64,000 nt of DNA from a virus (IMGVR_UViG_3300020576_006930:1-64000); one strand, 5' to 3'. Shown: positions 46,052 through 63,953, counted from the stretch's first letter. The notes: generated by a model from the sequence alone, not told the origin. A program made the numbers and translations.

Positions 46052-46127
46052 GTACCGTTAGGCAAATGGGAAGTCGGCAGTCTGCAAAACTGCTTTTGAG
46101 TTGGTTCGATTCCAACACGGTACTCCA
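46052..46127 (+). tRNA. tRNA-Cys (GCA)
   Basis: GCAGT-CTGCAAA-ACTGC, U73. Confidence 0.9.
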
Positions 46128-47005: not shown

Positions 47006-47395
47006 ATGAGTTTTATGAAAACCCCCGACTTTACGGTACCTGAAATTCACCCGAAGGGGTGGGGTTACGAATTATGGTTGGTGAATAACAACAAGTATTG
47101 CGGTAAAATTCTTCATTTCAATAACGGCAAGCGATGTTCCTTTCATTACCATAAATTGAAAGAGGAACATTTTTATTGTTCTTCTGGGTCTTTCCTATTA
47201 AAATTGTCCTGGGGCGATGATATTACCAAGGCAGAAGAACGATTATTTGAATCGGGGCAAGTGGTAGAAATTCCCATAGGGTTAAGACATCAGATGATTG
47301 CTTTGCAAGATGGTAGTCAATTGATTGAAATATCCACCCAACATCTTGAGGATGATTCGTATCGGGTGGCTCCGGGAGATAGTCAGAAAGTATGA
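47006..47395 (+). CDS. Cupin domain protein (mannose-6-phosphate isomerase-like)
   Basis: PKGWGYELW...SFHYHKLKEEHFY...IP.GLRHQM. Confidence 0.8.
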   Translation: MSFMKTPDFTVPEIHPKGWGYELWLVNNNKYCGKILHFNNGKRCSFHYHKLKEEHFYCSSGSFLLKLSWGDDITKAEERLFESGQVVEIPIGLRHQMIALQDGSQLIEISTQHLEDDSYRVAPGDSQKV

Positions 47396-47798
47396 GTTGC
47401 CATTCTATATTTATAGAATATGCCACTATTCAAAAAAATATCCGAAAACTGCTTTGAGGTGAATGAGGTCAAAGACTCATTATTGAAACAATTAGAAGCA
47501 AAGATCAAACAAAAATATCCCAATGTCGTGACATCGATTGATACTGATAGTGAGGGGAATCCAATTTTGGATATTGATACCGGCGAAACGAATTTTTATG
47601 TCAGTCAAGGACCAAATGAAAAATTTTCAGTTAGTGCGGTTTGGTCAAAAGATGAAAAAGGTAAAAAGAATTTAGATACGGATTCGATGGTGAAAGCAGT
47701 ATCGAGCATACCGGGAATGACTTAGAAATAAATTTTCAAAAAGCTTGACAAAAACAGGAAGTATGAGATACTTATTCCTGTAAGTGAGAAATAACAAT

Positions 47799-47849
47799 AT
47801 GAACAATCGCTGGTTTAATAATATTCGTAGAAGGAATGGCGGAGGCTGA
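47799..47849 (+). CDS. Leader peptide 1, MNNRWFNNIRRRNGGG
   Basis: 16-codon ORF between promoter (TTGACA 47745, GATACT 47767) and terminator; below the ORF-track cutoff. Confidence 0.85.
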   Translation: MNNRWFNNIRRRNGGG

Positions 47850-47910
47850 ATAAGCCTACCGATAGCGAAAGCTTTCGCCCGCCACTCCAAAAGGGTGGCG
47901 GGCTTTTTGT
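47837..47910 (+). promoter_or_regulatory. Transcription attenuator 1 heading the Trp/Arg/Asn/Phe/Ile tRNA operon
   Basis: Terminator GCCCGCCACTC-caaaa-GGGTGGCGGGC-TTTTT (47877-47908); leader TGGCGG (47837-42) is complementary to its 5' arm. Confidence 0.85.
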
Positions 47911-47929
47911 TTGTTCTTTGTCAATTTAT

Positions 47930-48003
47930 ATGTAGTTCGTATAATGGTATTACCTTCCTCTCCAAAAGGAAAGACAGGGGTTCGATTCCTCTACTACATG
48001 CCA
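47930..48003 (+). tRNA. tRNA-Trp (CCA)
   Basis: TTCCT-CTCCAAA-AGGAA, G73. Confidence 0.85.
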
Positions 48004-48013
48004 ATTTTTAGAT

Positions 48014-48088
48014 GCTCTTATAGTGAAATGGACATCACGGGACCCTGCGAAGGTCTAATTCCAAGTTCGAATCTTGGTAAGAGCGCCA
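48014..48088 (+). tRNA. tRNA-Arg (GCG)
   Basis: GGACC-CTGCGAA-GGTCT. Confidence 0.85.
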
Positions 48089-48097
48089 AATTTAAAT

Positions 48098-48174
48098 GCA
48101 CCCGTGGCGCAACTGGACAGCGCAAACGGCTTCTATCCGTAAGGTTGGGGGTTCGACTCCCTCCGGGTGTACCA
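48098..48174 (+). tRNA. tRNA-Arg (TCT)
   Basis: ACGG-CTTCTAT-CCGT. Confidence 0.9.
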
Positions 48175-48355
48175 ATTTTGAGTGTGTGACCGATAAAGCT
48201 TAGTGGTAGATCGGCCTTGAACTGAGGCTCGGAACACATAGGTTCAAATCCTATCGCGCTCACCAATTTCAGATGAACGAAAGTTCCCTAGTCTTGTGTA
48301 TTGGGCCGGTAAAAACTTTAGATTCCGGTATCTGATAAGAATTTTGTTTTAGGAT

Positions 48356-48431
48356 TCCTCTTTAGCATAACTGGTAATGCAGCACACTGTTAATGTGCCC
48401 TATGTTGGTTCAAATCCAACGGGAGGAGCCA
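48356..48431 (+). tRNA. tRNA-Asn (GTT)
   Basis: GCACA-CTGTTAA-TGTGC. Confidence 0.9.
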
Positions 48432-48492
48432 ATTTTAATAGCATAAAAAGTAGTAATTTTTCACAGGTAGTATATACTTATACTTGTGTGCT

Positions 48493-49089
48493 ATGAATAA
48501 AATATTACTAAAAAGATATGTTGATGAAGGACTTTCTATAAATGACATTTGTAAGAAGGTAGGTAAGGGAAACACCAGTATAAGATACTGGTTAAAAAAA
48601 TATAAACTAAAAACAAATTGGAAAGGTTCATTGGAAAGGAAAGTGCCAGATAATGAATTACTAAAAATAGCAAAAAATTCAAAAAGTTTTACTGATTGTT
48701 TGTTGAGAGTGAACGGAAATGCTGGCGGAGGTTCGTATTACTTTTACAAGAAAAGATTAGAAAAATTAAATTTTGATTTTTCAATATACAAAAATTTAAA
48801 CAGAATACCACTTTTTTTGGTTAGAAGCAATCAAGAAGCTATACAAAGAAAAAGAGGGTATAGGATCAGAAGAGAAAAATTACATTTGTATTTAAAATAC
48901 AATAATGTGGAATATAAATGTAGTAAATGCGGAATCTGTGAGTGGGAAGGGAAAAATTTGTTATTACATATTCATCATAAAGATGAAAATTCACAGAATA
49001 ATAAATTGGACAATTTATGTTATCTTTGCCCAAATTGTCATAATATACATCATTATAATGATGGTAAATTGGCTAACAAACTAATCTAG
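48493..49089 (+). CDS. HNH homing endonuclease with N-terminal HTH
   Basis: KCSKCGICEW...LHIHHKD.N..NN..NL..LCPNCH; stop codon lies inside tRNA-Phe. Confidence 0.85.
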   Translation: MNKILLKRYVDEGLSINDICKKVGKGNTSIRYWLKKYKLKTNWKGSLERKVPDNELLKIAKNSKSFTDCLLRVNGNAGGGSYYFYKKRLEKLNFDFSIYKNLNRIPLFLVRSNQEAIQRKRGYRIRREKLHLYLKYNNVEYKCSKCGICEWEGKNLLLHIHHKDENSQNNKLDNLCYLCPNCHNIHHYNDGKLANKLI

Positions 49090-49146
49090 TGAAAGTGCAT
49101 CCCTGAAGAGGATGAAAGCTCCGGGCAGAACGGAGGTTAGCCACCA
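49071..49146 (+). tRNA. tRNA-Phe (GAA), atypical D and T loops
   Basis: GGCTAAC/GTTAGCC-A-CCA; CATCC-CTGAAGA-GGATG. Confidence 0.75.
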
Positions 49147-49156
49147 ATTTTTAAAT

Positions 49157-49231
49157 CCCGGGATAGTGTTAATGGAAGCACGTTAGATTGAAACCCTAAC
49201 AGAGACGGTTCGAATCCGTTATCCGGGACCA
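49157..49231 (+). tRNA. tRNA-Phe (GAA), second copy
   Basis: TTAG-a-TTGAAAC-c-CTAA; canonical T arm. Confidence 0.7.
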
Positions 49232-49295
49232 ATTACGTAGTTTTTCTACTTTCTACGACCCCAGCGTAACGGCTGAATCAAATAAAGTGGAATAT

Positions 49296-49370
49296 GCACC
49301 CATAGTGAAATGAATATCACGTTGCGCTTCGAACGCAACATTTCGGGTTTGAATCCTGATGGGTGTACCA
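49296..49370 (+). tRNA. tRNA-Arg (TCG)
   Basis: TTGCG-CTTCGAA-CGCAA. Confidence 0.9.
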
Positions 49371-49629
49371 ATTTAGTAATGTAGTTAAAAGGTAGAATAT
49401 GGTCCGTGGAGGATAATAAGTTGCAACTTAATTCATTGACTATGCCGGCGGCGGGTTTGTCTGCTAATCGGTTGTGAGGTTCAAATCCACACCATTACTT
49501 TAATTTATGACCGAAGACGATGAGATACTGATTGAATGTAGTTGTTGCCATGACCTGTTCGATTTGGAACAGATGCGGATGAATGAAAATGGAAAATCGG
49601 TATCTTGTGATGAGTGTCGATCTGAAAAT

Positions 49630-49705
49630 GGTAGTGTAGCTCAGTTGGCAGAGCGTAGTCTTGATAAGGCTCGGGTCGGGGGTTCGACTCCCTCCACTAC
49701 CACCA
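49630..49705 (+). tRNA. tRNA-Ile (GAT)
   Basis: Loop TT-GAT-AA, canonical arms. Confidence 0.9.
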
Positions 49706-49717
49706 ATTTTTAAAAAC

Positions 49718-49794
49718 GCAACGGTAGCTCAATTGGATAGAGCGTTAGCCTCCGAAGCTAAAGGTTGTGGGTTCGACTCCCGCTCGTTGCACCA
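49718..49794 (+). tRNA. tRNA-Arg (CCG)
   Basis: TTAGC-CTCCGAA-GCTAA. Confidence 0.9.
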
Positions 49795-50227
49795 AAATAA
49801 AATGAAATTGGAATTAATCAAGCAAAAAAACAAAATATCATCGTATAAAATTAATGGCGAACACACTGAGTATGAGGTAGAGGGTCATGTTTTTTATGTA
49901 AAAGGGTACCCAGCATTTATGATTTTGGAGAATGGCGAAATCAATCCCATTACACCTAATGGAATGGTTATCTATTATGATAATAAAAAAGAATGCGATG
50001 AATGGTTGAAAAATGAAGCAATTAACTACCGAACAATTTAAAAAATACATGTCGAACCCATTGACCAATGACGAAAAAGTTCGAAGTTGGTGTTCATTGC
50101 CGGACAATCGTTACTACACAGTTTCGGTTTGGCCTGAGGCAAGAGCGGGGCAGGTAAGAGTTTCAGAAAACTTGTTTCGGGATGTAAAAGTAAAGAAGAT
50201 ATCCAAATCGGATCAACCATAAAAGTT

Positions 50228-51262
50228 ATGAACATTCTATTGGACAGAGACACATTCCGCAATGGGGTGTTCATGCGTGACAAAAACAAATGTGTCATTT
50301 GTGGGCAACCGGCTCAGGATGCGCATCACATTATTGAACGTAGATTATTTGACGATGGTGGTTATTATCTTGACAATGGCGCTTCATTATGTGCGACGTG
50401 TCATATTAAGGCCGAATCTACTGAGATTAGTTGCGAAGCTATCAGAGCAGGAGCTGGAATCGTGGACATTGTTTTGCCGCTTCACTTATATCGGGATAAT
50501 GTTTACGATAAGTGGGGCAACATAATCAATGTCAATGGCACGCGGCTGAAAGGCGAATTATTCGGTGATGTCAGTGTTCAGAAGATTTTGAAACAGGGTG
50601 GAGTTCTTAGCAAGTTTGTGGATTATGTAAAATATCCCCGCACTTACCATTTACCTTGGAGTGACGGTTTGACGAATGATGATCGGGTAATGACTCCGGA
50701 GGATTTAAAATTTTTAGAAGATAGTTCGGTGGTCGCTACGGAAAAAATGGATGGAGAAAATACCACCATTTATACCGATTACATTCACGCTCGTTCGGTG
50801 GATAGTCGTTCACATTGGACACAATCATATGTGCGCCAATTACAAAGTAAAATTGGACATGATATCCCAAAGGGTTGGCGGATTTGTGGTGAGAATCTTT
50901 ATGCCAAACATTCCATCAAGTATGATAAATTGGAAGATTTCTTTCTGATGTTTTCGATTTGGGATGACAAAAATCAGTGTTTGAGTTGGTTGGAAACCGT
51001 GGAATGGGCAAAGTTGTTGGGATTAAAAGTGGTAGACGTGTTCTTTGTCGGGCCGTGTTGGAAAGACACGGTACATAAGCTATATGAGGGCAATTCAAAA
51101 CATAAGCCCATTGAAGGTTATGTGGTCAGGACATTGAACGGTTTCTCTTATGGTAATTTTAGAAAATGTACTGGTAAATTTGTTAGAAAAAACCACGTCC
51201 AGACCAGTCACCACTGGCGGTTTGAGAAGATCGAAAAGAATGAGTTATCGTCCGTAGGGTGA
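50228..51262 (+). CDS. HNH domain fused to an ATP-dependent RNA ligase
   Basis: N-terminal CVICG...DAHHI...NGASLC..CH; C-terminal KYPRTYHLPWS, TEKMDGEN (motif I), GENLYA, EGYVVR, K.VR. Confidence 0.85.
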   Translation: MNILLDRDTFRNGVFMRDKNKCVICGQPAQDAHHIIERRLFDDGGYYLDNGASLCATCHIKAESTEISCEAIRAGAGIVDIVLPLHLYRDNVYDKWGNIINVNGTRLKGELFGDVSVQKILKQGGVLSKFVDYVKYPRTYHLPWSDGLTNDDRVMTPEDLKFLEDSSVVATEKMDGENTTIYTDYIHARSVDSRSHWTQSYVRQLQSKIGHDIPKGWRICGENLYAKHSIKYDKLEDFFLMFSIWDDKNQCLSWLETVEWAKLLGLKVVDVFFVGPCWKDTVHKLYEGNSKHKPIEGYVVRTLNGFSYGNFRKCTGKFVRKNHVQTSHHWRFEKIEKNELSSVG

Positions 51263-51423
51263 ATTTTAAATAAACTAATCGTAAAAAAGTTTCGAAAGTT
51301 GTTGACGAAAAGTTAAAATGGTATATACTTATTCTTGAGTTGAGACGGCATCGGTAAAGACAACGAATAAAAAACGGTGCTTGACAACAAAGAATTTCGG
51401 TGTACAATATACACCATAAGAAA

Positions 51424-51483
51424 ATGAATATTAGTTCAAAACATCAATATAAGGATAGTGAACCAGCAGGAGGCGGTGCATAA
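51424..51483 (+). CDS. Leader peptide 2, MNISSKHQYKDSEPAGGGA
   Basis: 19-codon ORF after promoter TTGACA 51381 / TACAAT 51403 and before a terminator. Confidence 0.85.
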   Translation: MNISSKHQYKDSEPAGGGA

Positions 51484-51550
51484 AGCACATCCTGAAGCGT
51501 AAAGCTTTATGACCGCCATCCTCTAATACAGGGTGGCGGTTTTTTATTTT
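51469..51550 (+). promoter_or_regulatory. Transcription attenuator 2 heading the Lys/Tyr/Asp/Gln/Glu/Asn/His/Pro/Ser tRNA region
   Basis: Terminator ACCGCCATCCT-ctaatac-AGGGTGGCGGT-TTTTT (51512-51545); leader GGAGGCGGT (51469-77) is complementary to its 5' arm. Confidence 0.85.
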
Positions 51551-51763
51551 TAAGAGTAGTAAAGTCAAGCTGGACTTAAAACGGAGTATGAGATAGCACT
51601 CAAGAAACGCTGTTCGTTGAAACCGAAAGGTAGTGAACGATAAATCCATAAAGCAGACGGCTCACGCGATTCCGTCGTTTATGGCTTCAAAAAGAAGGCG
51701 TGATTGAGTGAAAGCCCACCCGGAAGTAGGCTTGACGTTAGCGGAGAGACGCTTTTTAATTTC

Positions 51764-51849
51764 GCGAGTATGCGCCGAGCTGGCCGATGGCACCGGACTT
51801 TTAATCCGGTATATAAACACCGTGGGTTCGAATCCCACTGCTCGCACCA
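51764..51849 (+). tRNA. tRNA-Lys (TTT), enlarged variable region
   Basis: CCGGA-CTTTTAA-TCCGG. Confidence 0.8.
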
Positions 51850-51902
51850 TTTTACTTTTAAGATTTTTTGTATTTTAAAAGTCATTCATGATATTTATAT
51901 GT

Positions 51903-52370
51903 ATGAAGAAATGCTATACATGCCAACAAGAAAAAGAAACGGTGGAATTTAACAAAAGTAAATGTCGTAAAGACGGGTTGAATTCTATTTGTAAAGAATG
52001 TTCTAAAAAACGGAGTAAACAATATTACAAGGAAAATACCGAATATCATAGAAAAGCGGTCTATCGAAATAAACAACAGTACGGAGAACAATTGAGGGGC
52101 TGGATATCCGATTTAAAATCGGGAGGGTGTTGTATATGTGGTGAGAAAGAGATATGTTGTTTGGATTTTCATCATATCGATTCAAAAACAAAAGATTTTG
52201 CTATTTCAAGTTTGGTATACAATCTATCCAGAAAAAAACTAGGGAATGAATTGACTAAGTGTGCAATAGTGTGCTCAAATTGTCACAGAAAAATTCACAT
52301 AGGCGTTTTAAAAAACCCTATTGATAAAAAACTAGAAAACATATCCATACCGAATTTAACAGTGAATTAA
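51903..52370 (+). CDS. HNH endonuclease (paralog of 16303-16758)
   Basis: CYTC...CKEC; CCICGE...LDFHH...KCAIVCSNCHR. Confidence 0.85.
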   Translation: MKKCYTCQQEKETVEFNKSKCRKDGLNSICKECSKKRSKQYYKENTEYHRKAVYRNKQQYGEQLRGWISDLKSGGCCICGEKEICCLDFHHIDSKTKDFAISSLVYNLSRKKLGNELTKCAIVCSNCHRKIHIGVLKNPIDKKLENISIPNLTVN

Positions 52371-52399
52371 TTTTCAAACGAATTCAAAACAATTTTAAT

Positions 52400-52476
52400 G
52401 CAGTTGAAGCCATGATGGACCGGCACCCGGCTTTTACCCGGATATGGAGTGGGTTCGATTCTCACCGACTGCACCA
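52400..52476 (+). tRNA. tRNA-Lys (TTT)
   Basis: CCGG-CTTTTAC-CCGG. Confidence 0.8.
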
Positions 52477-52485
52477 ATTTTAAAC

Positions 52486-52562
52486 GCGCTCGATGCTACA
52501 GTGGATCGGCACCCGGCTCTTACCCGGATATGATGAGGTTTCAACTACCTCCGAGCGCACCA
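52486..52562 (+). tRNA. tRNA-Lys (CTT)
   Basis: CCGG-CTCTTAC-CCGG. Confidence 0.75.
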
Positions 52563-52918
52563 ATTTCTGATTCCCCCATATCAACAATCACCGTTTTTCC
52601 CAACGGTTCAAATTTGTTGACCAAATCCGGATTTATTTCCCGTGGGGGAATCAATTTTAATTTAACAATTTTGCCTCAGTCCAGACGGCCTACTTCTAGT
52701 TAAGCACAGACGAAGTAATGAAGAAATGGAGTCTGGGTGCTCTGAGTGCAAATTCATTCGCCAGTTATCTAATCTGGTGCCAACAGCAATCAGGAAAATT
52801 AAAACATTCGTAGGAAGCTATGCTGACCGCAAGAGTGTTTTGGTTGGAATGGTTGGGCCGCTGTTCTGAAAACAAAATTATACGGGGCCGTTCACACCCC
52901 GTTGACAAAGTGAACAAT

Positions 52919-53005
52919 GGTAGGGTATCCAAATGGCTAAAGGACACGGTCTGTAAAACCGCCGCTCAAAAGGCTTTGTGAGTTCGAATCTCATCCCTAC
53001 CACCA
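52919..53005 (+). tRNA. tRNA-Tyr (GTA)
   Basis: CGGT-CTGTAAA-ACCG, long variable arm. Confidence 0.9.
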
Positions 53006-53010
53006 ATTTA

Positions 53011-53064
53011 AAGATGCCAACAGCAAACAAAAATTCAATTATAATGAAAAAAAGATGGCATCTT
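53011..53064 (+). ncRNA. ACAGCAA-scaffold small RNA
   Basis: AAGATGCCA/TGGCATCTT stem, ACAGCAA, inner TTCA-ATTATAA-TGAA hairpin. Confidence 0.65.
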
Positions 53065-53103
53065 GTTTTAGAACCCTCTATTTATATGGGAGAGGTCTAA
53101 TTT

Positions 53104-53529
53104 ATGAAAAAATTTAATTGTTTATATTGTAAAAAAGAAAAAACACACCAATCGTCTCAGTCTATGGGGAAATATTGTTCGGCAAAATGTCAACAAAATT
53201 TTCAAATAGAGAAAAAAATGGAAAGTGGAAATTGTTTGTATACTCCGGGAATAAGAAATTGGTGTTATAATAATTTAAAACAGGTATGTGATGTGTGTGA
53301 TACGGGATTAATATGGAATAATAAACCGCTGAGATTACAAGTCGATCACAGAAATGGAAATTCCAGAGATAACCGTAGAAATAATTTAAGAATGATTTGT
53401 CCCAATTGTCACACCCAAACCGAAAATTGGGGGATAAAAAACGCATCTCCTGAGGGAGTTGAAAAAATGGTAGTTGCGGGGAAATTAACACAAAAGAATT
53501 TTTGGTCATATAAAGTAATAGTAACCTAA
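53104..53529 (+). CDS. HNH homing endonuclease
   Basis: KYCS.KCQ; CDVC...LQVDHRNGN..DN...NLRMICPNCHTQT; stop codon inside tRNA-Asp. Confidence 0.85.
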   Translation: MKKFNCLYCKKEKTHQSSQSMGKYCSAKCQQNFQIEKKMESGNCLYTPGIRNWCYNNLKQVCDVCDTGLIWNNKPLRLQVDHRNGNSRDNRRNNLRMICPNCHTQTENWGIKNASPEGVEKMVVAGKLTQKNFWSYKVIVT

Positions 53530-53577
53530 CGCACTGTCTATGCGAAGTCCGGGGAGCGTAACCCCGTATGACCGCCA
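53504..53577 (+). tRNA. tRNA-Asp (GTC)
   Basis: GGTCATA/TATGACC-G-CCA; CGCA-CTGTCTA-TGCG. Confidence 0.8.
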
Positions 53578-53763
53578 TTTTGATCTGTTGGCTAATCCAC
53601 CTTGCTACGCATTGAGTATGGATCGTAGAGCACGCGGACGGTTTGAATGAATCCCGAACAAGTAGGCTACTAACCGAAAAGTAAGGCTGAGTGAGAAAAC
53701 CGGTGCTTGAAACTGATGATTGGCTTAGTAACCAATAAGCGTTCTGACAGATTAATTTTTTAT

Positions 53764-53837
53764 ACCCCTTTGTTGTAGTGGTAGCAAAGTTCTCTTTGAA
53801 AGAAAAAGTGGTGGTTCGATTCCATCAAGGGGTGCCA
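53764..53837 (+). tRNA. tRNA-Gln (TTG)
   Basis: TTCT-CTTTGAA-AGAA. Confidence 0.8.
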
Positions 53838-54041
53838 ATTTAATGGGTGTACAGTAGTTCAATAAATGGGATAGACATAAAAAGTCTGGGTAGCGCCTCA
53901 GTCCAATTATGGAACCAGTATGAAATCCCCTAGTCGTTGAGAATCTGAGAACACAGAATGAGATAGACGTTCACGCTGAACGGAATATTGTGAAATCCTC
54001 TAGTAAGTGATACGCTGTAAATCAGCGGCCCCATATTTTAT

Positions 54042-54115
54042 GTTCCGGTCGATTAATGGTAGGTCACTGCCCTTTCAAGGCGGGAGCGGGAGTTCGATTC
54101 TCCCTCGGAACACCA
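54042..54115 (+). tRNA. tRNA-Glu (TTC)
   Basis: CTGCC-CTTTCAA-GGCGG. Confidence 0.9.
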
Positions 54116-54123
54116 TTTTTAAT

Positions 54124-54196
54124 GCTCCTATGATGTAATGCAACATCTTCGGCCGATTACCGAAGCTTGGTGGTTCAAGTCCACCTGGGAGTACCA
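54124..54196 (+). tRNA. Atypical tRNA-Ile-like (GAT) with C33
   Basis: TTCGG-CCGATTA-CCGAA; full cloverleaf with ACCA. Confidence 0.55.
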
Positions 54197-54202
54197 ATTT
54201 AC

Positions 54203-54279
54203 GGCCCCATCGTCTATATGTGTTAGGACATCATGTTCTCAACATGAAAAATAGGGTTCAAATCCCAATGGGGCTACCA
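54203..54279 (+). tRNA. tRNA-Glu (CTC)
   Basis: TCATG-TTCTCAA-CATGA. Confidence 0.85.
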
Positions 54280-54361
54280 ATTTCGAATTCCCTGAGTGAG
54301 TCCGCAATTCTATACCGTGATATTCGACGGTGAATGTGGGTTAAACACACCGGGCATTTAC

Positions 54362-54437
54362 GGCCCCGTCGTCTAGAGGACAAGGATTGCGGATTCTCAA
54401 TTCGCGGAACTCGGTTTGATCCCGAGCGGGGCTACCA
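54362..54437 (+). tRNA. tRNA-Glu (CTC), second copy
   Basis: GCGGA-TTCTCAA-TTCGC. Confidence 0.85.
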
Positions 54438-54848
54438 ATTTACATGGGCTTTTTCCATTCCTCAGACTCTTTCAATTCTTTTATAAATTGTTCGTGACGA
54501 TTAAGCCCGACAAGATTTTCATATAATTTTAAGGCTTCAGCGGACATACAATTTACTGACGCATTTTGGATTTTCTTTTGGGTGGTGTATTTTGATGAAT
54601 TTGTAATCATAATTTTTTCAGTGATATTCCGTTTACGGGATGTAATATCAAGGTGGGAAGTATATCTCATTCTTGAAAAGAAGATATGGGGTTAAACCCC
54701 ATTAGGTAATACCCTACTAATCCAATTTCCATAAGCTATGAACCAACAAATAAACAACGGCATTAGATGGTTGTAACGGGTGCGAAGTCCGACCCAATGA
54801 ACATAATTCATTGGTGTAAGCCAGACATAGTAAAGTGGAAAGATTTAT

Positions 54849-54923
54849 TCCAGAGTAGTGTCAAAGTAGCACACGCGGCTGTTAACCGTGTTAGTGTTGG
54901 TGCGAGTCCAACTTCTGGAGCCA
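54849..54923 (+). tRNA. tRNA-Asn (GTT)
   Basis: CGCGG-CTGTTAA-CCGTG. Confidence 0.85.
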
Positions 54924-55192
54924 ATTTTTGTTGCGCTAACGGGCTAGAGTAAAGTAACTCAGTCGCCTTTATAAGCGAAAGATAGTAGGTTAACGCCCTA
55001 TATGACCCGCAGGTATCTCTAAGACATGAGGTCGCAACAAAACGATTTTCAACACCGATAAATAACGATGCTGTTATATTTCCGGACCAACGGTTGACCG
55101 ACAAAAACAGCATCGGTTTTGAACCTATTAGTTCAACGCATGATGAATGTGAGGATGAGAAGTTAGCTCACGATAAAATCTTCTCCACTTTT

Positions 55193-55247
55193 AAGATGCC
55201 AACAGCAACCAAATCACTTGCCTGTTAAGCAAAAAAGATGGCATCTT
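55193..55247 (+). ncRNA. ACAGCAA-scaffold small RNA displaying an Asn-type anticodon loop
   Basis: Same outer stem as 53011; inner TTGC-CTGTTAA-GCAA. Confidence 0.65.
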
Positions 55248-55772
55248 GTTTTTATGGTCGGCGTCTGAATCTGCTGGTGAGGTTAGCTTCATAGGATGAT
55301 AATAATGACGAGTTAACCCGGCCGCCGATTTTTTGAAGGAACTGGCGGACTGAGATGTGTATAGTTGAGGTCCGATAGACAATGCCAGCCTTCAATTTTA
55401 TGGTGATATTCATTTGATTTTTTTGTTTTGGTGATGATATTTATCAGCAAATACGTCGTATTTACGATGTCAAAACAAAGGTTTAAATGAAAAAATATCA
55501 AGAAATTAGTCATTATATCAAATTTAAAGCTCGTAATGGAGATGGAGAAGTGATATCGATAGTAGAGGATGTAGATAAAGCGAAATTTATTTATGATTCT
55601 TTAGAAGAAATCCCCCCGTTCGGTCCAGATAAAATTATGGTAGAAAATAATAGAATGTGGAAAGTAATTAAACAAGACGGATTAACTATTCTAGCCAAAA
55701 CTCTAAAATAATTTAGTAAAAAATACGGATTCAAATCGGTTTTTCCTCCCCATCGATAATACTTATTGGCAT

Positions 55773-56678
55773 ATGAAAATGGGAGTCGTAAAATGTAGTC
55801 GGTGTCGTAAAGAATTCGAAAAACCCCAATCTGAGATTAAGAGAATGGTAAAAAGAAAATGGGTAAACCATTTTTGTGGTACCAAATGTCTTTCTGAATT
55901 CGGCGTGGTGTTTCGGAAGAAACTTTCCGATGAAAGAATAAAATCGTATTATCTTTCTCCTAAGAAATGTCCAAATTGTGATTCAGTCATTCCACACGAA
56001 GACAAATCACAAAAAACATATTGTTCATCAAAATGTTTCGGTATCCATTCTCAAAAAAACGGTGGCCATTGTCATTGGTCAGATGAAGATAAAGAACGCT
56101 TACGGCAACAAGCCAAAAACAATCCCAAATTTGTTCCGGGGTGGAATAGAGGGAAACGGTATGCTCCAACAATTACATTAAAATGTAGAAATTGTGGGGG
56201 TGATTTTATACAAACAATTTCCAAAATAAATTCTAATAAAACGCAAACTTGCGGAAAAGAATGTAGAAGAAAATTACAATCTATCAATTTACTTAACCAG
56301 TACAAAAATGGGAAGAAAGTATATGGCGGAACAACCAAGTGGTTAAAATACAAAGATATAAAAGTTCAGGGCTCATATGAATATAGAACTTGTCAAATCT
56401 TAGACCGTTGGCAACAGGTCAATAAAATTAAAAAATGGGAATATACAAACGATAGATTTGAGTATATAGGAACTGACGGGAATAACCACAATTACTTGAT
56501 GGATTTCAAGATATGGAATAACGATGGTTCTTTTTATTATCTAGAAACTAAAGGATATGAAAAAGAAAATGATAGGTTGAAATGGAAATCTGTCGTGGAT
56601 GCCGGATACAAATTGGATGTGTGGTTTGATCCTGATATTAGACAGAGAGAAAAAGAATTTATGGAGGTTGTAGCATAA
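55773..56678 (+). CDS. Zinc-finger repeat protein with a C-terminal PD-(D/E)xK nuclease domain (homing endonuclease-like)
   Basis: Three CxxC...CxxxC modules; GSYE...YLMDF...YLETKG; stop codon inside tRNA-His. Confidence 0.75.
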   Translation: MKMGVVKCSRCRKEFEKPQSEIKRMVKRKWVNHFCGTKCLSEFGVVFRKKLSDERIKSYYLSPKKCPNCDSVIPHEDKSQKTYCSSKCFGIHSQKNGGHCHWSDEDKERLRQQAKNNPKFVPGWNRGKRYAPTITLKCRNCGGDFIQTISKINSNKTQTCGKECRRKLQSINLLNQYKNGKKVYGGTTKWLKYKDIKVQGSYEYRTCQILDRWQQVNKIKKWEYTNDRFEYIGTDGNNHNYLMDFKIWNNDGSFYYLETKGYEKENDRLKWKSVVDAGYKLDVWFDPDIRQREKEFMEVVA

Positions 56679-56741
56679 CTGGTTAATGTCCTAGGTTGTG
56701 AACCTAGTTTTATGCGGATTCGAATTCCGTCAACCTCCCCA
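56663..56741 (+). tRNA. tRNA-His (GTG) with G-1
   Basis: CTAGG-TTGTGAA-CCTAG; G-1:C73. Confidence 0.9.
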
Positions 56742-57052
56742 ATTTCAGCGGACTCAGTCGCATAGCTACGACTGGATACAACACAACTGAGCCACGACGC
56801 GGAGATGAAGCTCGAGCTTTAATAAGTCAATGTGATCGCAGTTGAAACCGCTGTCGTATTTCCAATGGAATGAGTATCTGATTAAAAACACAAGGAGAGA
56901 GATTGTTCCGCTGCAGCGGACAGACCTCCGTGAAATCCTCCCGAAGTTTAGGAGAAAGTTCCTTTTTAGTTTACGCCAGGTTAGGGATGGATTATTCCTC
57001 ACGGAAGTCTCAATTGACAAGCGAGCGTCCAGAAACCCACTGGCTGAAATTT

Positions 57053-57165
57053 TAGATGCGGACAGCAAGCAATCGATTATGTCAAACTCTTAGTGTGGGT
57101 TCGAATCCCATGTATGGTGTAATGGTAGCACAGGAGTCCCGCAAGGGAATCAAAAAACGCATCTA
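57053..57165 (+). ncRNA. ACAGCAA-scaffold RNA carrying a permuted tRNA elbow (T arm before D arm)
   Basis: TAGATGCG/CGCATCTA stem; GTGGG-TTCGAAT-CCCAT then TGGTGTAATGGTAGCAC, closed by ACTCT/GGAGT. Confidence 0.7.
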
Positions 57166-57351
57166 GTTTTTCGAGTAGTAATAATAGGAAGTGACCAATC
57201 GGTATCCGCCTCATGAATGTAACCCAGGACTGGTAGCCTGTCGTGCGAGCAAGTTAATCCCTCGCTGGTGAAAGGGTAGGACAAGTTGATACCGGCGTAT
57301 TATTATGAGCGGTAGTTGGGACCTGATAAGTTCACAAACCATTCGATTTAT

Positions 57352-57425
57352 GGCCCATTCGTCTATCAGCAGGACCACTCGTTTTCAGCGAGAAGAGGCC
57401 GGAGCGTCACCGGCATGGGCTACCA
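57352..57425 (+). tRNA. tRNA-Glu (TTC)
   Basis: CTCG-TTTTCAG-CGAG. Confidence 0.75.
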
Positions 57426-57779
57426 CTTTCGGCAGTCATAGGGAGTCATGACCTTAGAACACTCATGTTGTGTTATGCTCTGAAATAAAGTCACATTAAA
57501 AATTAAGATAAATACATGTATAATCAAAATAAGTAGATGTGATGGACACGTAAGAGAGACTGCGACCATTTCGGGTATGTCTTGGGAGAGTTATCGGGTT
57601 CAATTCCCGAATAGTCCACCATACGGGCTATGGGATGGTCCTGTCGCTAGCGACAAAAGCGGGTTCGATCCCCGTCATATCCATTGATTTGACCCGGAGA
57701 ATATCCGATAAATACGACACTTGGTTGGGTGCTATTCCAGAAGCTTAAAATACCCTTCAAAAGACGGGTCACCAATTTC

Positions 57780-57854
57780 GCAGTATTGATGCTAGTGGCA
57801 ACATGCGGCTTTCCCAAAGCTGATTCGTCAGTTCGATTCTGATATACTGCTCCA
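57780..57854 (+). tRNA. tRNA-Gly (CCC)
   Basis: CGGCT-TTCCCAA-AGCTG, U73. Confidence 0.85.
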
Positions 57855-58130
57855 TTTCGCCGGTTTGGTCTAACCACCTCTTAATCGGGGACGGACGGTT
57901 TGGAAAGACGGCCGGGTTAGCCCCGGACAACGTAGGTTCAAATCCTACAATCGGCTCGAATTTACGGGGTTACAAGGAAAGGTTCGGTAAACGAAAACTA
58001 GGCCCATTTCAACAAACGCAAGCTCCGGAATAATGTACAACCCTTGCCTGAGATGGATTGGTGGTGAACACCATTTAAGTAGACCGTTACTGATCAGCGG
58101 TTCGATTCCGCTTATCTCCACCATTTATAA

Positions 58131-58206
58131 CGGAGTGTCGCCTAGTGGTATGGCGCTTGTTTCGGGAACAAGAATAACGGGAGTTCGATTCTCCCCACTC
58201 CGACCA
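58131..58206 (+). tRNA. tRNA-Pro (CGG)
   Basis: CTTGT-TTCGGGA-ACAAG. Confidence 0.9.
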
Positions 58207-58212
58207 GTTTAT

Positions 58213-58289
58213 CGCCTGATCGTTTAAAAAACTAAGACACCGACCCTTGGGGTCGGAAATGCCAAGGTAAAGTCTGGCAAAGGCGACCA
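58213..58289 (+). tRNA. Degenerate Pro(TGG)- or Gln(TTG)-like tRNA
   Basis: C1:G72 and A73; CCGAC-CCTTGGG-GTCGG; poor T loop. Confidence 0.4.
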
Positions 58290-58446
58290 TTTATGCCATC
58301 CAGGATCGGGTGCAATTCCCTTTACACAGAGTACTCTAGCGTGAATCTGTGGGTGGCCCATTTTAACGGACTTGTCTTTTGATAAGGATGTAATGTAACC
58401 AGACACCAAATCGTGGGCCTGATAATCCCGTTCCGTTTTACTATTT

Positions 58447-58878
58447 ATGAATATGGAGTACAAATCGTTTTTCAATTATCTAAAAGAAGGTGTGGAAAAA
58501 TATCTCATTTGGCAGCCGACCGGAATTTTCCGGGCGATGGTTGATTATTTAGATACTTTAACCTCATCAAACAACGAGGTCTATCGGGGAGCCTCCGATA
58601 AGGAAATTTCTATATTGAAAAATACCAAAGTTTTTAAATCCAACGGCAAAGGTAATACCCGGGATAATGCCGGGACATATGTTTCCGCAGATATCCATTT
58701 AGCCGCCGCTTTTGCGCTGAGATATTACCGGGATGGCCACGGAGGTTCGGTGCTCGTTTTAGAAAAGAGCAAATTACCTGAATTAGTCGCCCGCGATCCT
58801 GGAAATTTTACCGTGGACCATGTTCCACTGGAAGCGGTAAAACGCATCATCAATTTAAAAGACTTTACCGGTCGATGA
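58447..58878 (+). CDS. Possible ADP-ribosyltransferase-fold protein
   Basis: VYRG...YVSAD...A..FA...VL pattern; weak. Confidence 0.4.
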   Translation: MNMEYKSFFNYLKEGVEKYLIWQPTGIFRAMVDYLDTLTSSNNEVYRGASDKEISILKNTKVFKSNGKGNTRDNAGTYVSADIHLAAAFALRYYRDGHGGSVLVLEKSKLPELVARDPGNFTVDHVPLEAVKRIINLKDFTGR

Positions 58879-59137
58879 AGGAAAGACAATACTGGCTGGG
58901 GTGAGATTCCCCTCATAAGGCCAATTATTGGAAAGAGAAGCACCTTCCAGGGTGTGATGGTACGACGGTACCGTAGTGAAATCCCTTCGTCAAATGTAAA
59001 AATGAGAGAGATAATAGATGGGAACCTGATGTGGTGTAATTGGCAGCACAGCCTTTAAAGGCAGGTTGAGGTTCAATTCCTCACGACTAGGCCATCTTAA
59101 TGAACATTCGTGAAATCCTCATCTAATTTTTTAGTTC

Positions 59138-59214
59138 GGGGTGGTAGCTTAATTGGTTAAAGCGGCAGCCTGTCACGTTGTAGACTGGGGGTTCGAGTCC
59201 CCTTCATCCCGCCA
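59138..59214 (+). tRNA. tRNA-Asp (GTC)
   Basis: GCAGC-CTGTCAC-GTTGT. Confidence 0.9.
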
Positions 59215-59545
59215 TTTTATGATTGAGTCCGGAGCCATCGTCCGCGGTGATGGCCGGAGAGTTCCAAACTGAACACTCAATCGCCACTTTAGTTACAAAG
59301 AGAAGATGGAGCTGGTAATAATTATTGTCATTATATTACCCCTCTCCGTGAAAGATGATTCCTGTGTAGAAAGCCAGGACAGATTGTAGTTGCACTGGTA
59401 AATGGTGCAATCGATTGGTTTGACAACCAAAGCAAAGAATACCTTGCATAAAGGTCGGAAACTATAACAACACCTAACTAATGTTGTAGGAGGTTCCCGT
59501 AAAGGTGCTTGTAATATAGCCTAGCAATCCTTTGTAACTTATTTT

Positions 59546-59682
59546 GCCATGCTAGTTCAATGTAGAACCCATCTCTTAAAAAGCCGATAGTCTCCCTGAA
59601 CGGAGAAGTTAGTGGGGTGTTTGCCCTGCGATGTAATTAGGCCAGATGAACTGCTAGTGCCAAGTCTAGCGCATGGCTCCCA
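59546..59682 (+). ncRNA. tRNA body with a ~60-nt insertion in the anticodon loop
   Basis: GCCATGC/GCATGGC acceptor, D arm, CATCT...AGATG stem, T arm. Confidence 0.6.
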
Positions 59683-59883
59683 TTTTGGACAACCCTGGCC
59701 TTTGACGCCGGGGGCTGATGAAGGACGAGTCTCTCCGATTGAATATCGCAGGTGTTAGACCACTTAGATATTCGTTTCAGTGTCCGATCTTTTTTCCAAA
59801 TTTTTTATTGATTAGTTTAAAGTATATAACTCAATTCATACTTGAACTATTACGATAATCCTAATCAATTGATTTAACAAATT

Positions 59884-60732
59884 ATGTATAAAACCAACCG
59901 TGCCTTTACGCTCATCGAACTTTTAGTCGTCATTGCCATAATAGGCATCCTGGCGGTCATGCTGCTGCCCACCTTGACCAGGAGCAAGAATACCGCTAAT
60001 GGTATAATCTGTATGAATAATGGGCGCCAACTTTCTCTGGGTTGGTTAATGTATGCACACGATAACAACGAACGAATTGTCTATGCGAGTGATGATGGTC
60101 TGGGTCCAGTTAATCCACTAAATCAATTTGCCTGGACACAGAGTCATATGGATTATGACCCAAACAACCAAGCAAACTGGGATATCACCATTGATATTAT
60201 GGTCGGCCCCCTGTGGAGTTACAATCGTAACGCTAAAATTTACAAATGTCCTGGAGATAAATCCGTCGTCTTGGTAGATGGGGTAGAAAAGCCACGTGTA
60301 CGTAGCATCTGTATGAATTTGTATATGGGAGGTTATGCTGGAACCGACGGTGGATCGTGGTATGTCCGGCAAAACTATGTTTATTTGAAAACCACCGATT
60401 TAAATCTACGCACCTCCCCCGGCCCAGCTAAAACCTTTTTGTTTTTGGATCAGCGTGAAGATACAATCAACTGGGGAAATTTTCAAGTTCATATGATTGG
60501 TTACATTAACCATAATGGTAGTATGTATGGTTTTTATCAAGATATGCCTGGAATGTATCATAATAACGCAGCCGGGATAAGTTTTGCGGATGGGCACTCG
60601 GAAATTCACAAATGGAAAGATCCCCGGACGACGCCGCCCATTCAGAAAAACATCGCCGTAATTGGATATGTGGAATCCCAATATAACAAAGATGTTGAGT
60701 GGCTACAAGAACGAGCCACTAGGCCAAAATAA
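59884..60732 (+). CDS. Prepilin-type N-terminal methylation domain protein with H-X9-DG C-terminal motif (PVC type)
   Basis: RAFTLIELLVVIAIIGILAVMLLPTL; YKCPGD; YHNNAAGISFADGHSE. Confidence 0.9.
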   Translation: MYKTNRAFTLIELLVVIAIIGILAVMLLPTLTRSKNTANGIICMNNGRQLSLGWLMYAHDNNERIVYASDDGLGPVNPLNQFAWTQSHMDYDPNNQANWDITIDIMVGPLWSYNRNAKIYKCPGDKSVVLVDGVEKPRVRSICMNLYMGGYAGTDGGSWYVRQNYVYLKTTDLNLRTSPGPAKTFLFLDQREDTINWGNFQVHMIGYINHNGSMYGFYQDMPGMYHNNAAGISFADGHSEIHKWKDPRTTPPIQKNIAVIGYVESQYNKDVEWLQERATRPK

Positions 60733-60738
60733 TTTTAT

Positions 60739-60894
60739 GCTCGTGAGTAAGGAACTACCCGTTGAACTCCCAGATCGTGCCCAAGCTAAGATCTTCGAAT
60801 CTGGTGGTGGACTGCTGCTAATCCCAGTGAAGTTACCATTTTGGAGGAATGCCTCATGCACGGATTGTCAGTTCGATTCTGACTGCGAGCTCCA
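60739..60894 (+). ncRNA. Enlarged tRNA-like RNA (156 nt)
   Basis: GCTCGTG/TGCGAGC-T-CCA; GTCAG-TTCGATT-CTGAC. Confidence 0.65.
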
Positions 60895-61052
60895 TTTCTT
60901 TTATATTTATATAAAGTCAAGAGAATAATTTATGGAAAGTGAAATGACAGGATCATTAACAAAACCGAAGCGTGAAATACCGTGGTATGATCCAGAGTGG
61001 TATCAGGAATGGCTTCGGCAACAAAGACAAAAAAACATTTCCATCAATCAAA

Positions 61053-61130
61053 CAGAATGTAGTGTAGCTTGGCCAACACGCTAGTCTGGGGGACTAGAAA
61101 CCGGGAGTTCAAATCTCCCCATTCTGACCA
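61053..61130 (+). tRNA. tRNA-Pro (GGG)
   Basis: CTAGT-CTGGGGG-ACTAG. Confidence 0.9.
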
Positions 61131-61354
61131 TTTTATGAAGCAGAAAACACATAAGAAAAACCGGTTCCATCTAGTCGCTTTTTTAAAAGATATTGTCCGG
61201 CAGCCCATTGTAAAAAAAGCCTTGGGTTATCTTGTGGTCGCGTTGATCGGCTATGTTGTCAATCACATCCAGACCGATTCGACTATTAATAAGTTAAAAA
61301 CGGATAATACCGATTTAACATGGGCAGTGGACTATTTTCGTAAGTAACATTTAC

Positions 61355-61429
61355 GGACCTATGGTGAAATGAATATCACTGGGATTTCCTAAATCTCTAT
61401 TTCCGGTTTGACTCCGGATAGGTCTACCA
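61355..61429 (+). tRNA. tRNA-Arg (CCT)
   Basis: GGGAT-TTCCTAA-ATCTC. Confidence 0.85.
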
Positions 61430-61480
61430 ATTTACCATTGACTTTATGTCGTGGTTCATATATACTTATTTGTTGAATAT

Positions 61481-61568
61481 GGAAGGTTGTCAGAGTGGTA
61501 ATGAGACGGTCTTGAAAATCGTAGCCAGGGTAAAACCTGCGGGGGTTCGATCCCCTCACCTTCCGCCA
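61481..61568 (+). tRNA. tRNA-Ser (TGA)
   Basis: ACGGT-CTTGAAA-ATCGT, long variable arm, G73. Confidence 0.9.
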
Positions 61569-61625
61569 ATACACGGTTCGAATATTATTTTTAATTTTTT
61601 TCGAACCCCTCTTATACTTATTGAC

Positions 61626-62129
61626 ATGAAAGAAAACATTTTAAAGTTAAGAGCGGATGGCAAATCTTACAACGAAATACGAAAAATATTGGGATGTTCA
61701 AAAGGAACGATAGCATATCATTGTGGATTTGGTCAAAAAGAAAAATTAAAAAGTAGAGTTAAAAACTATAAAAAAACTCTTCCGGGAATTTTAAAGAGAA
61801 AAAAGGATAATTTTTCTTTTTCAAATGGAAAGAGAGTTGGGAGAGGGAGACGAGTACATCTGGCATTCTCTCTTAGAGATTTTGTAAAAAAATTACAACT
61901 CAACTCTAAATGTTATTTAACCGGAAGAAAAATTGATTTATATCAACCAAAAACATATCAATGTGACCATATTATTCCTGTCAGCAAGGGGGGAAAATCT
62001 ACATTAGATAATCTGGGATTGGTGTGTAGAGACGCAAATATGTCTAAATCTGATATGACGGTTGATGAATTTTTTTCTTTATGTAAAGAAATTTTGACCA
62101 ACAATGGATTCAAGGTTGAAAAAATTTAA
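61626..62129 (+). CDS. HNH endonuclease with N-terminal HTH
   Basis: G.SYNEI...LGCSKGTIAYH; CYLTG...DHIIPVSKGG.STLDNLGL. Confidence 0.85.
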   Translation: MKENILKLRADGKSYNEIRKILGCSKGTIAYHCGFGQKEKLKSRVKNYKKTLPGILKRKKDNFSFSNGKRVGRGRRVHLAFSLRDFVKKLQLNSKCYLTGRKIDLYQPKTYQCDHIIPVSKGGKSTLDNLGLVCRDANMSKSDMTVDEFFSLCKEILTNNGFKVEKI

Positions 62130-62135
62130 TAGTTT

Positions 62136-62223
62136 GGAGGGTTGCTAGAGCGGTAATAGGATGGCTTGCTAAGCCATAGCCTGGGTAAAACCAGCACAGG
62201 TTCGATTCCTGTACCCTCCGCCA
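62136..62223 (+). tRNA. tRNA-Ser (GCT)
   Basis: ATGGC-TTGCTAA-GCCAT, long variable arm. Confidence 0.9.
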
Positions 62224-62231
62224 CTTTATAA

Positions 62232-62305
62232 GGTCGCTTAGTTTATCGGCAGAATAATTCATTCACACTGAATAGAGAATGGTTCAATTCCATTAGTGAC
62301 CACCA
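62232..62305 (+). tRNA. tRNA-Val (CAC)
   Basis: ATTCA-TTCACAC-TGAAT. Confidence 0.85.
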
Positions 62306-62307
62306 AT

Positions 62308-62381
62308 GGGTGATTAGTATAAAAGAAAAACAATTCACTGACACTGAATAGTCGATGGAGCGTTACCATCATCGCCCACCA
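62308..62381 (+). tRNA. tRNA-Val (GAC)
   Basis: ATTCA-CTGACAC-TGAAT. Confidence 0.75.
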
Positions 62382-62835
62382 ATTTTAAAAAAGTTATGAA
62401 ACCAAACAAAAAAGTTATGAAACGTTACTTGGGTACGGAAGAGATCAATGCCCAGTGTTATCCTTTTGATAAATCCAAAAATCTACGACTTCTTTCTCAC
62501 GACGAATTAAAGCGTTGTAAGAAGGGAGTCGTTTTGTTTTCGGTAGGCGGTAAAAAGATTGTCGTTGGAACGGATGTTATAGACACCGACACTACGGTTT
62601 TCGGCAAATCCAAATATGGTCAGTAAAATCAAGACACGTTACAAATATGTAATTGCGTTTGCTTCCGGAATTTTAACCGGAGGATCGACTTTATTTTTCT
62701 GTTATTATTACCAATTCATTAACTATCCCGCAGTCGCTTTTGTCCATTGGCCAAATCTCATCGCCTTGGGAGTGGTGTGTTTGTTTATTTGGAGCATAAT
62801 ATTTTTATACAATCGCACGAAGATCGTCAAATCTT

Positions 62836-63567: not shown

Positions 63568-63953
63568 CCAACACCAATAAACTTTCAATAATCAATGTCA
63601 TTTTAACCTGGACGACACTAATATTAGTATTCATAATGCTCATTGCTCAGGCTACAGCTATTCAACACGAAAGAACCATAAACAACCAATTGTCCAAACG
63701 GTTGTCAGAATTGGAAACGAATCAGTTAGCTATTGTCATTACCTGGGAAAAACTTTCCAAGGAAAACGATCAATTTAACAAGCTATTTATTGAAAAAGTG
63801 AAGCAAGCGGATGATATTCTTGACAAAAAAATCTCTCAATTACAGGAATTCGATTTCGTTGTGGTTGAACGACTTAAAGCGGTTTCTGAAGCGCAAAACG
63901 CGGTGATAAAAACAATAATCGGGCTATCAATCACAAATAGTGTTGACAAATGA
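63564..63953 (+). CDS. Membrane-anchored coiled-coil protein
   Basis: N-terminal transmembrane helix then heptad-like sequence; ATGA overlap at 63564. Confidence 0.6.
   Translation: MTNTNKLSIINVILTWTTLILVFIMLIAQATAIQHERTINNQLSKRLSELETNQLAIVITWEKLSKENDQFNKLFIEKVKQADDILDKKISQLQEFDFVVVERLKAVSEAQNAVIKTIIGLSITNSVDK

Follow-up and report, generated by a model that had tools for sequence, protein, structure and literature searches.

Large phages carry tens of transfer RNA (tRNA) genes, and why they do so and how these genes are controlled is an open question. The question is raised in a specific form by the virus contig IMGVR_UViG_3300020576_006930 (139,132 bp, 43.6% G+C), on which ARAGORN finds 43 tRNA genes, 33 of them in the window, i.e. 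the 64,000 nucleotides (nt) analysed here, which are the first 64 kb of the contig. Two arrays of tRNA genes in the window, at 47930-49794 and 51764-62381, are each preceded by a promoter, a tiny open reading frame (ORF) and a strong intrinsic terminator. According to the model developed below, each of these two units is very likely a multivalent ribosome-mediated (leader-peptide) attenuator that exerts feedback control on the supply of phage tRNAs. Each set of tRNAs is probably made only when its codons are read slowly. The anatomy of the units, their alternative folds, the dependence of these folds on ribosome position and the co-variation of leaders with arrays were established in silico; translation of the leaders, the timing of the switch and its physiological signal are inferred. 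All the features of both units are on the plus strand.

The first unit starts 3' of the stop codon of the preceding ORF (47420-47725) with a promoter at 47745-47772, which consists of TTGACA, a 16-nt spacer and GATACT with an upstream TG, and which was detected by a consensus scan with 10/12 matches. The leader ORF of 16 codons runs from an ATG at 47799 to a TGA ending at 47849. After Met it encodes five Asn, four Arg and one each of Trp, Phe and Ile, followed by three Gly. An in-frame GTG at 47784, located right after a stop codon, would extend this leader by Arg-Asn-Asn-Asn-Met. The stop codon lies within a hairpin (AGGCU/AGCCU, 47843-47857), which is followed by a second hairpin at 47860-47877 with the letters AGC-GAAA-GCU at 47864-47873. 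The intrinsic terminator comprises a hairpin at 47877-47903 with an 11-bp stem containing 9 G-C pairs (-22.3 kcal/mol) and a T-tract extending to 47913. The terminator hairpin ends 27 nt upstream of the tRNA-Trp gene (start at 47930), the first member of array 1, which is comprised of Trp(CCA), Arg(GCG), Arg(UCU), Asn(GUU), Phe(GAA), Arg(UCG), Ile(GAU) and Arg(CCG) according to ARAGORN and Rfam.

The second unit has two promoters, at 51302-51329 and 51381-51408, with 10/12 and 11/12 matches, respectively; the latter is composed of TTGACA, a 16-nt spacer and TACAAT. The leader ORF (51424-51483, 19 codons) contains Asn, Ile, Ser(AGU), Ser(UCA), Lys(AAA), His, Gln, Tyr, Lys(AAG), Asp, Ser and Glu as codons 2-13 and ends with Pro-Ala-Gly-Gly-Gly-Ala. 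An in-frame GTG at 51400 is usable from the upstream promoter only. Hairpins over the stop codon and an AGC-GUAAA-GCU hairpin are present in this unit as well, and the terminator has a hairpin of 12 pairs at 51511-51541 with a T-tract to 51552 (-19.9 kcal/mol, z = -5.9). A spacer of about 210 nt (51553-51763), in which Rfam has no match, separates the terminator from array 2. This array (51764-62381) contains genes for Lys x3, Tyr, Ser, Glu, Ile, Glu x2, Asn, His, Gly, Pro, Asp, Pro, Arg, Ser x2 and Val x2, with interspersed ORFs and tRNA-like genes that carry inserts. Terminators of such strength are rare, there being only a handful in the 139-kb genome. Promoters of the sigma-70 type are found in the contig by the consensus scan. 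A Shine-Dalgarno motif is absent from 61 of the 75 long ORFs of the contig, and the A-rich start context of its true genes is also found at leader 2. The original prediction, which was made from the sequence alone, had described a promoter, a tiny ORF, hairpins over the stop codon and with the AGC motif, and a terminator before the first tRNA; all these elements are present in both units where it had placed them.

The 3' end of each leader ORF is able to pair with the 5' arm of the terminator. This complementarity, which had been attributed to the Gly codons, is borne out by the folds. In unit 1 the antiterminator domain extends over 47833-47888, and its outer helix is formed by 47833-47842, which contains the Asn-Gly-Gly codons, and 47879-47888, which belongs to the 5' arm of the terminator. 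The domain of unit 2 (51468-51522) contains an analogous helix between 51468-51477 and 51512-51522, and a second helix between 51479-51486 and 51504-51511. The two antiterminators have folding energies of -26.7 kcal/mol (z = -5.3) and -25.0 kcal/mol (z = -5.1), and in neither case was any of 200 shuffled sequences as good. Their stability is therefore comparable to that of the terminators (-22.3 and -19.9 kcal/mol). The stop-codon hairpin and the AGC-GAAA-GCU hairpin of unit 1 are the enclosed arms of a three-way antiterminator junction. The two small hairpins are therefore internal arms of the three-way domain and do not compete with the antiterminator.

The 3' halves of the two switches are paralogous, and the sensing codons are divergent. 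Position 2 of the terminator 5' arm is changed from C to A between the paralogues, its partner in the 3' arm is changed from G to T to match, and the antiterminator strand of leader 2 has a T opposite the changed position. For comparison with other terminators, the energy of pairing between the 5' arm and the preceding 12-95 nt was calculated for 59 strong terminators in 746 kb of DNA of this and related phages. The terminators of five detected leader units rank 1, 2, 5, 9 and 10 among the 59, which corresponds to a rank-sum z of about -3.3 by our own arithmetic.

The dependence of these folds on the ribosome was examined with transcripts cut at the 5' arm of the terminator, i.e. before its 3' arm is made. 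The ribosome was represented by a mask, without kinetics, extending from 15 nt before to either 11 nt or 14 nt after the first base of the A-site codon. The antiterminator is kept when the A-site is at codons 2-9 of leader 1 or codons 2-12 of leader 2. It is lost when the ribosome is nearer the stop codon, from the Gly codons onward and, in leader 2, from codon 14. Folding both leaders with and without a masked ribosome, a check that had been proposed at the outset, thus gives a choice of fold that follows the position of the ribosome. The antiterminator survives stalls at the 5' codons only, so that the codons at which a stall permits antitermination are those that match the array, and the Gly, Pro and Ala codons are a structural strand. 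Without any ribosome the cut transcript forms the antiterminator in both units. The predicted default state is therefore read-through, unlike that of the trp and his attenuators.

In leader 1, 12 of the 15 residues after Met belong to the set of amino acids served by array 1, and all five of these amino acids are used (background 0.22, binomial P = 3.6e-6). When the GTG extension is counted, all of the 16 matched codons are readable by anticodons of array 1 under standard wobble rules. In leader 2, tRNAs of array 2 can read 11 of the 12 codons at positions 2-13, including codons of both Ser families and of both Lys anticodons. Asn and Ile are present in both leaders, and tRNA-Asn and tRNA-Ile in both arrays. 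The Gly codons at the ends of the leaders are read by no tRNA of either array, and the Gly and Pro codons of leader 2 that array tRNAs leave unread are precisely those of the antiterminator strand. The original prediction that the amino acids of each leader match the downstream tRNAs is upheld by these figures. It had also noted that Leu, Thr, Cys and Val occur in neither leader; their absence is real, yet array 2 ends with two Val tRNAs.

The following sequence of events is proposed. Host RNA polymerase would initiate at the sigma-70-type promoter and transcribe the short ORF. The first 9-12 codons would serve as 'sensing' codons, taken from those read by the downstream tRNAs, and the last, Gly-rich (GGN) codons would provide the 5' strand of the antiterminator, which can pair with the 5' arm of the terminator. 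If the leader is read fast, the ribosome would reach the end of the ORF and cover the antiterminator strand during synthesis of the terminator, so that the terminator would form and transcription would stop before the first tRNA. If the ribosome stalls at any of the sensing codons because the cognate charged tRNA is in short supply, the antiterminator would form and the polymerase would read through into the array. Read-through would likewise result if no ribosome is loaded, since the antiterminator would form then too. In unit 1 read-through would probably also reach an RNA ligase gene. The circuit would amount to negative feedback, in which slow decoding of its own codons turns a tRNA set on and restored supply turns it off.

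Whether leaders co-vary with arrays had to be asked in other phages. Megablast of 47700-52000 against 50,697 phage records revealed no close relative, an exact-pattern search of IMG/VR for the leader-1 switch gave no match, and leaders 1 and 2 had no BLASTN homologues in 2.3 Mb of related loci. The absence of close homologues limits the analysis of covariation within the switches of the window to a comparison of the two paralogues with each other. Related loci were collected with homologues of the fused HNH-RNA ligase (query 50228-51262), which yielded 80 loci from IMG/VR and 80 from metagenomes; the metagenome loci found by RNA ligase are mostly short contigs with few arrays. Regions rich in tRNA genes were then taken from ten large relatives. 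Units were chosen by structure only, as a strong terminator near a tRNA gene with no promoter between the two.

Leaders with unrelated sequences track their own arrays in these relatives, which are uncultured jumbo phages; a search of related genomes for units of a short ORF and a terminator with co-varying codons had been proposed at the outset. The leader of locus L006 (Arg, Glu, His, Phe, Asp, Ile) precedes genes for Phe, Asp, Ile, Glu x2, Arg, His and Arg, with 16/18 residues matched (P = 3.9e-7), and its antiterminator of 10 bp is intact for stalls at codons 2-11. L192 has 13 consecutive Ile, Leu, Ser and Tyr codons before Tyr, Leu x5, Ser x4 and Ile; this leader samples each Ser isoacceptor, and its rare ATA codon is matched by tRNA-Ile(UAU). 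Three loci, L014, L022 and L096, have homologous leaders of 42-43 codons before large arrays. In L022, 36 of 41 residues are in the array set, and the amino acids missing from the sensing codons of these leaders (Leu, Ala, Gly, Pro and Tyr) are those served by the other arrays of the same phages. The terminator L088-4764, located before Val, Tyr, Gly and Leu genes, has no matching ORF.

Cultured jumbo phages were reached through the ligase gene as well. In Caulobacter phage CcrBL9 (NC_048047.1), which has one unit at about 81307-81545, an ORF of 39 codons (81307-81426) lies directly before an array of Pro, Thr, Lys, Leu x3, His, Ala, Ser x3 and Trp genes, and 33 of its 38 residues match this set (P = 2.7e-8). 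A second unit of CcrBL9, at about 88798-89128, is located before Val, Ile, Val, Gln, Asn, Arg and Phe genes and comprises a promoter, a leader in which Arg, Gln, Phe, Val, Ile and Asn are abundant, and a strong terminator whose 3' arm is repeated within the leader. Ralstonia phage RsoM2USA has a similar unit with 21/24 residues matched (P = 4.7e-6). The 39-codon ORF of CcrBL9 is annotated as a hypothetical protein, as would be expected if the short ORFs encoded functional micro-proteins, such as regulators or toxins, and the match of their codons were incidental. This explanation is hardly credible: the peptide sequences are not conserved between phages and each tracks its own array, many residues differ between the leaders of L014 and L022 and yet remain in the array set, and the C-terminal residues are dictated by pairing of the RNA.

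A scan of 185 array starts by composition only gave top scores of 9.2, 7.8, 7.8, 6.2, 5.2 and 4.9 on the sense strand and a maximum of 3.8 on the antisense strand. It detected a Leu/Ser/Pro leader before Pro, Pro, Leu, Ser, Pro and Leu x4 (L183), an Ala/Thr/Asp leader before Ala x3, Cys, Asp x2 and Thr x3 (L181), and a further leader unit, L193. These three have matching leaders without a canonical T-tract terminator, so that the output mechanism may vary among units, and not all of them are simple cases of attenuation at an intrinsic terminator. They would suit an arrangement in which translation of the leader acts positively or post-transcriptionally, for example through protection from Rho or nucleases or through guidance of the processing of the first tRNA, so that efficient translation raises the output of tRNA. 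Such an arrangement is improbable for the window, where both leaders precede strong canonical terminators whose 5' arms pair with the 3' end of the ORF, which implies termination upon completed translation. Moreover, a positive loop would make no sense for tRNAs that are already well supplied.

When nine leaders are compared with all of their arrays in a matrix, the diagonal dominates, and none of 200,000 permutations reaches the observed sum. Three of the nine units, as well as the two of the window, were picked partly for their match, and the unbiased evidence is therefore that of the units picked by structure and of the comparison between sense and antisense strands. The matrix bears on a variant of the attenuator in which the device is the same and the signal is general, namely overall translation capacity, for example ribosome loading or host shut-off; any decrease in leader translation would then cause read-through, and the codon match would only provide fine-tuning. 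This variant would be in keeping with the predicted read-through of an untranslated leader, and leader 2 samples so many amino acids that it would come close to a general sensor. A general signal needs no restriction to the amino acids of the array, yet leader 1, L006, L192, L183 and L181 are restricted in this way with P values of 1e-4 to 1e-10, and the leaders fit their own array better than others. The variant is accordingly considered unlikely, if less so than the positive arrangement. The core of the original prediction, i.e. that a multi-codon leader chooses between antiterminator and terminator and thereby controls the matching tRNAs, is supported by the mutually exclusive folds, their dependence on ribosome position, the codon match and the recurrence of the arrangement with co-variation.

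Several observations weigh against control by leader-peptide attenuation. In the full-length leader transcript the terminator is always the fold of minimum energy, even with ribosome masks, and the switch must therefore be kinetic, which is beyond what folding can show; full-length folding, being uninformative for a kinetic switch, was replaced by folding of the cut transcripts. The masked-fold model predicts that a stall at the matching codons 11-13 of leader 1 (AGA, AGG, AAU) blocks the antiterminator. For leader 2, the amino-acid match of 15/18 residues does not by itself reach significance (P = 0.09), since about two thirds of all amino-acid usage is served by array 2, and the Gln codon CAA is the only sensing codon of this leader without a tRNA in the array. 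A tRNA-Gln(UUG) was sought for this codon, and only a borderline tRNA-like match with a poor acceptor stem was found (59025-59091). In L014 and L022 the antiterminator strand is about 20 nt before the stop codon, and its blocking by a terminating ribosome would be steric only. In the contig that contains the window, three other arrays, at 45429, 63943 and 65701, have no matching leader. Possible internal promoters at 55766, 57496 and 61438 may make expression of the distal part of array 2 independent of the switch.

A promoter-like site with 11/12 matches at 47918-47945, 3' of terminator 1, would bypass the switch if real. This site is probably a false positive, given that its -10 box is inside the tRNA-Trp gene. 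It would also fit the view that the short ORFs arose by chance before ordinary terminators of upstream genes and that the arrays are driven by other promoters. The relatives provide examples of this kind: in L095, L012-8220, L019, L028 and L024 the terminator before the array is followed by a promoter of its own, and these loci, which look ordinary, were set aside as attenuators. Chance is nevertheless a very improbable explanation for the two units of the window. In both, a promoter separates the leader from the upstream gene, the leader terminators are enriched in antiterminator pairing, and the P values for composition and the recurrence of the arrangement argue strongly otherwise.

Tentatively, the leaders could be a per-codon surveillance against host defences that target tRNA, with depletion of a tRNA by an anticodon nuclease or by infection-induced decay inducing its replacement; we regard this as a minority possibility, and cleavage by host anticodon nucleases as the signal is speculation. 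An ORF at 50228-51262 encodes a protein with an HNH domain and an RNA ligase domain (PF09414, Pfam E = 2.9e-29), and transcription unit 1 probably ends with this gene, which would be co-transcribed with the array. No strong terminator of the plus strand is present between 47903 and the end of this ORF at 51262. If surveillance is the purpose, the RNA ligase would be induced too and could reseal cleaved tRNAs. The probable control of the ligase by unit 1 is consistent with a link to host nucleases that damage tRNA, but is no demonstration of it. If this reading is true, tRNA arrays would be inducible counter-defence modules rather than constitutive aids to codon usage.

The fusion of an RNA ligase with an N-terminal HNH domain is conserved across many jumbo phages. 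ORFs resembling HNH endonucleases also occur among the tRNA genes at 48484-49089, within array 1 (plus strand, Pfam), and at 53104-53529. Array 2 has several further peculiarities. Its first gene, tRNA-Lys(UUU) at 51764-51849, is unusually long at 86 nt. Genes resembling tRNAs with large inserts were found by the intron mode of ARAGORN at 57887-58123 (insert of 137 nt) and 59546-59680 (62 nt), and the former also yields a weak tmRNA-like match in Rfam. An ORF inside the array (59884-60732, 282 amino acids) has a type IV pilin-like N-terminal methylation motif (PF07963, E = 2e-8).

Three relatives (L014:15245-15462, L022:11688-11889 and L096:3040-3238) have in common a motif of about 200 nt, conserved in sequence and structure, in the interval from the attenuator terminator to the first tRNA. 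The motif is partly present at L088:4611-4835; it has no Rfam match, and the spacer of the window at 51553-51763 is not clearly homologous to it. Two leader units of one related phage have in common an upstream motif that is not of the sigma-70 type, TCGCTAATTAACCTTTTT, about 30-40 nt before the leader ATG (L192:1880-1900 and, on the minus strand, L193 2190-2215). This motif may be a phage-specific promoter.

The remainder of the region provides a setting for the two units. Among the long ORFs of the contig, the 45 that were listed are all on the plus strand. A phage transfer-messenger RNA (tmRNA; 38624-39026) and a GOLLD RNA (40252-40719; 157 bits, just above the gathering score) are located a few kb upstream of the tRNA arrays. 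A comparison array of Met(CAU), Leu x2, Thr x3 and Cys genes is found on the plus strand at 45429-46127. As had been claimed, a promoter (45429-45456) is located about 18 nt before the block of genes that starts at 45474, and this block lacks a leader. At the end of the window a strong promoter (63943-63971) is followed by an ORF of 7 codons that starts at 63982 and ends with TAG. About 55 nt past this TAG, beyond the end of the window, the contig has an amber-suppressor tRNA gene with the anticodon CUA (64060-64135). A tRNA(CUA) is also present in several related phages and hints at stop-codon recoding.

If the attenuator model is true, phages gauge how fast individual codons are decoded and regulate their own supply of tRNAs through feedback. 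Classical attenuation would thereby be extended to tRNA genes, as autoregulation by the class of the product itself, and the leader would be a 'roster', readable from the sequence, of the tRNAs treated as one regulatory unit. Such a compact, multi-input sensor of tRNA status would be of use to synthetic biology. The same arrangement is present in CcrBL9 and RsoM2USA, cultured phages that infect laboratory hosts, so the idea is directly testable. A full-text literature search, whose coverage leaves out most subscription journals, found no description of leader-peptide attenuation of tRNA genes, and none was found in those parts of the XacN1 tRNA paper (PMC5852040) that a term search covered.

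How the proposed device is related to known systems can be considered in turn. It shares with T-box riboswitches (RF00230) a leader RNA in which a switch between terminator and antiterminator depends on tRNA status and controls genes related to translation. The T-box recognises uncharged tRNA by direct contact with a specifier codon and the T-box sequence and involves no translation, whereas sensing is proposed here to occur through the translating ribosome. RF00230 has no match at the leaders even at permissive E-values. The curated Rfam leader families (His, Trp, Thr, Leu etc.) have no match in 45300-64000 at E <= 0.05, or in the region of leader 2 (51380-51900) at E <= 1.

In mechanism the proposed device resembles the attenuators of enterobacterial amino-acid operons, among which trp, his, leu and pheA are controlled by leader peptides, the thr leader senses Thr and Ile, and the ilvGMEDA leader senses Ile, Leu and Val. 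Common to these and to the units as modelled here are a short translated leader rich in regulatory codons, a terminator 5' arm that can pair upstream instead, read-through upon a stall at a hungry codon and, as in ilvGMEDA and thr, the sensing of several amino acids by one leader. The units differ in that they are viral and that their targets are tRNA genes, together with an RNA ligase gene, instead of biosynthetic enzymes, so that the sensor would measure its own class of product directly. Up to about ten amino acids are represented, mostly once each ('one codon per isoacceptor') and not in runs, and the stop codon is part of the antiterminator, which has the form of a three-way junction. Unlike in trp and his, no 1:2 protector pairing is predicted, and an untranslated leader would read through instead of terminating; protector pairing is not a feature of all known attenuators. 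In its subject the proposed device resembles the pheST attenuator of Escherichia coli, in which a leader peptide controls phenylalanyl-tRNA synthetase in response to the supply of charged tRNA. Common to the two would be a leader-peptide attenuator that governs a component of the translation machinery with charged-tRNA supply as the input. That of pheST responds to one amino acid and controls a synthetase, whereas the phage elements would respond to many amino acids and control the tRNA genes themselves.

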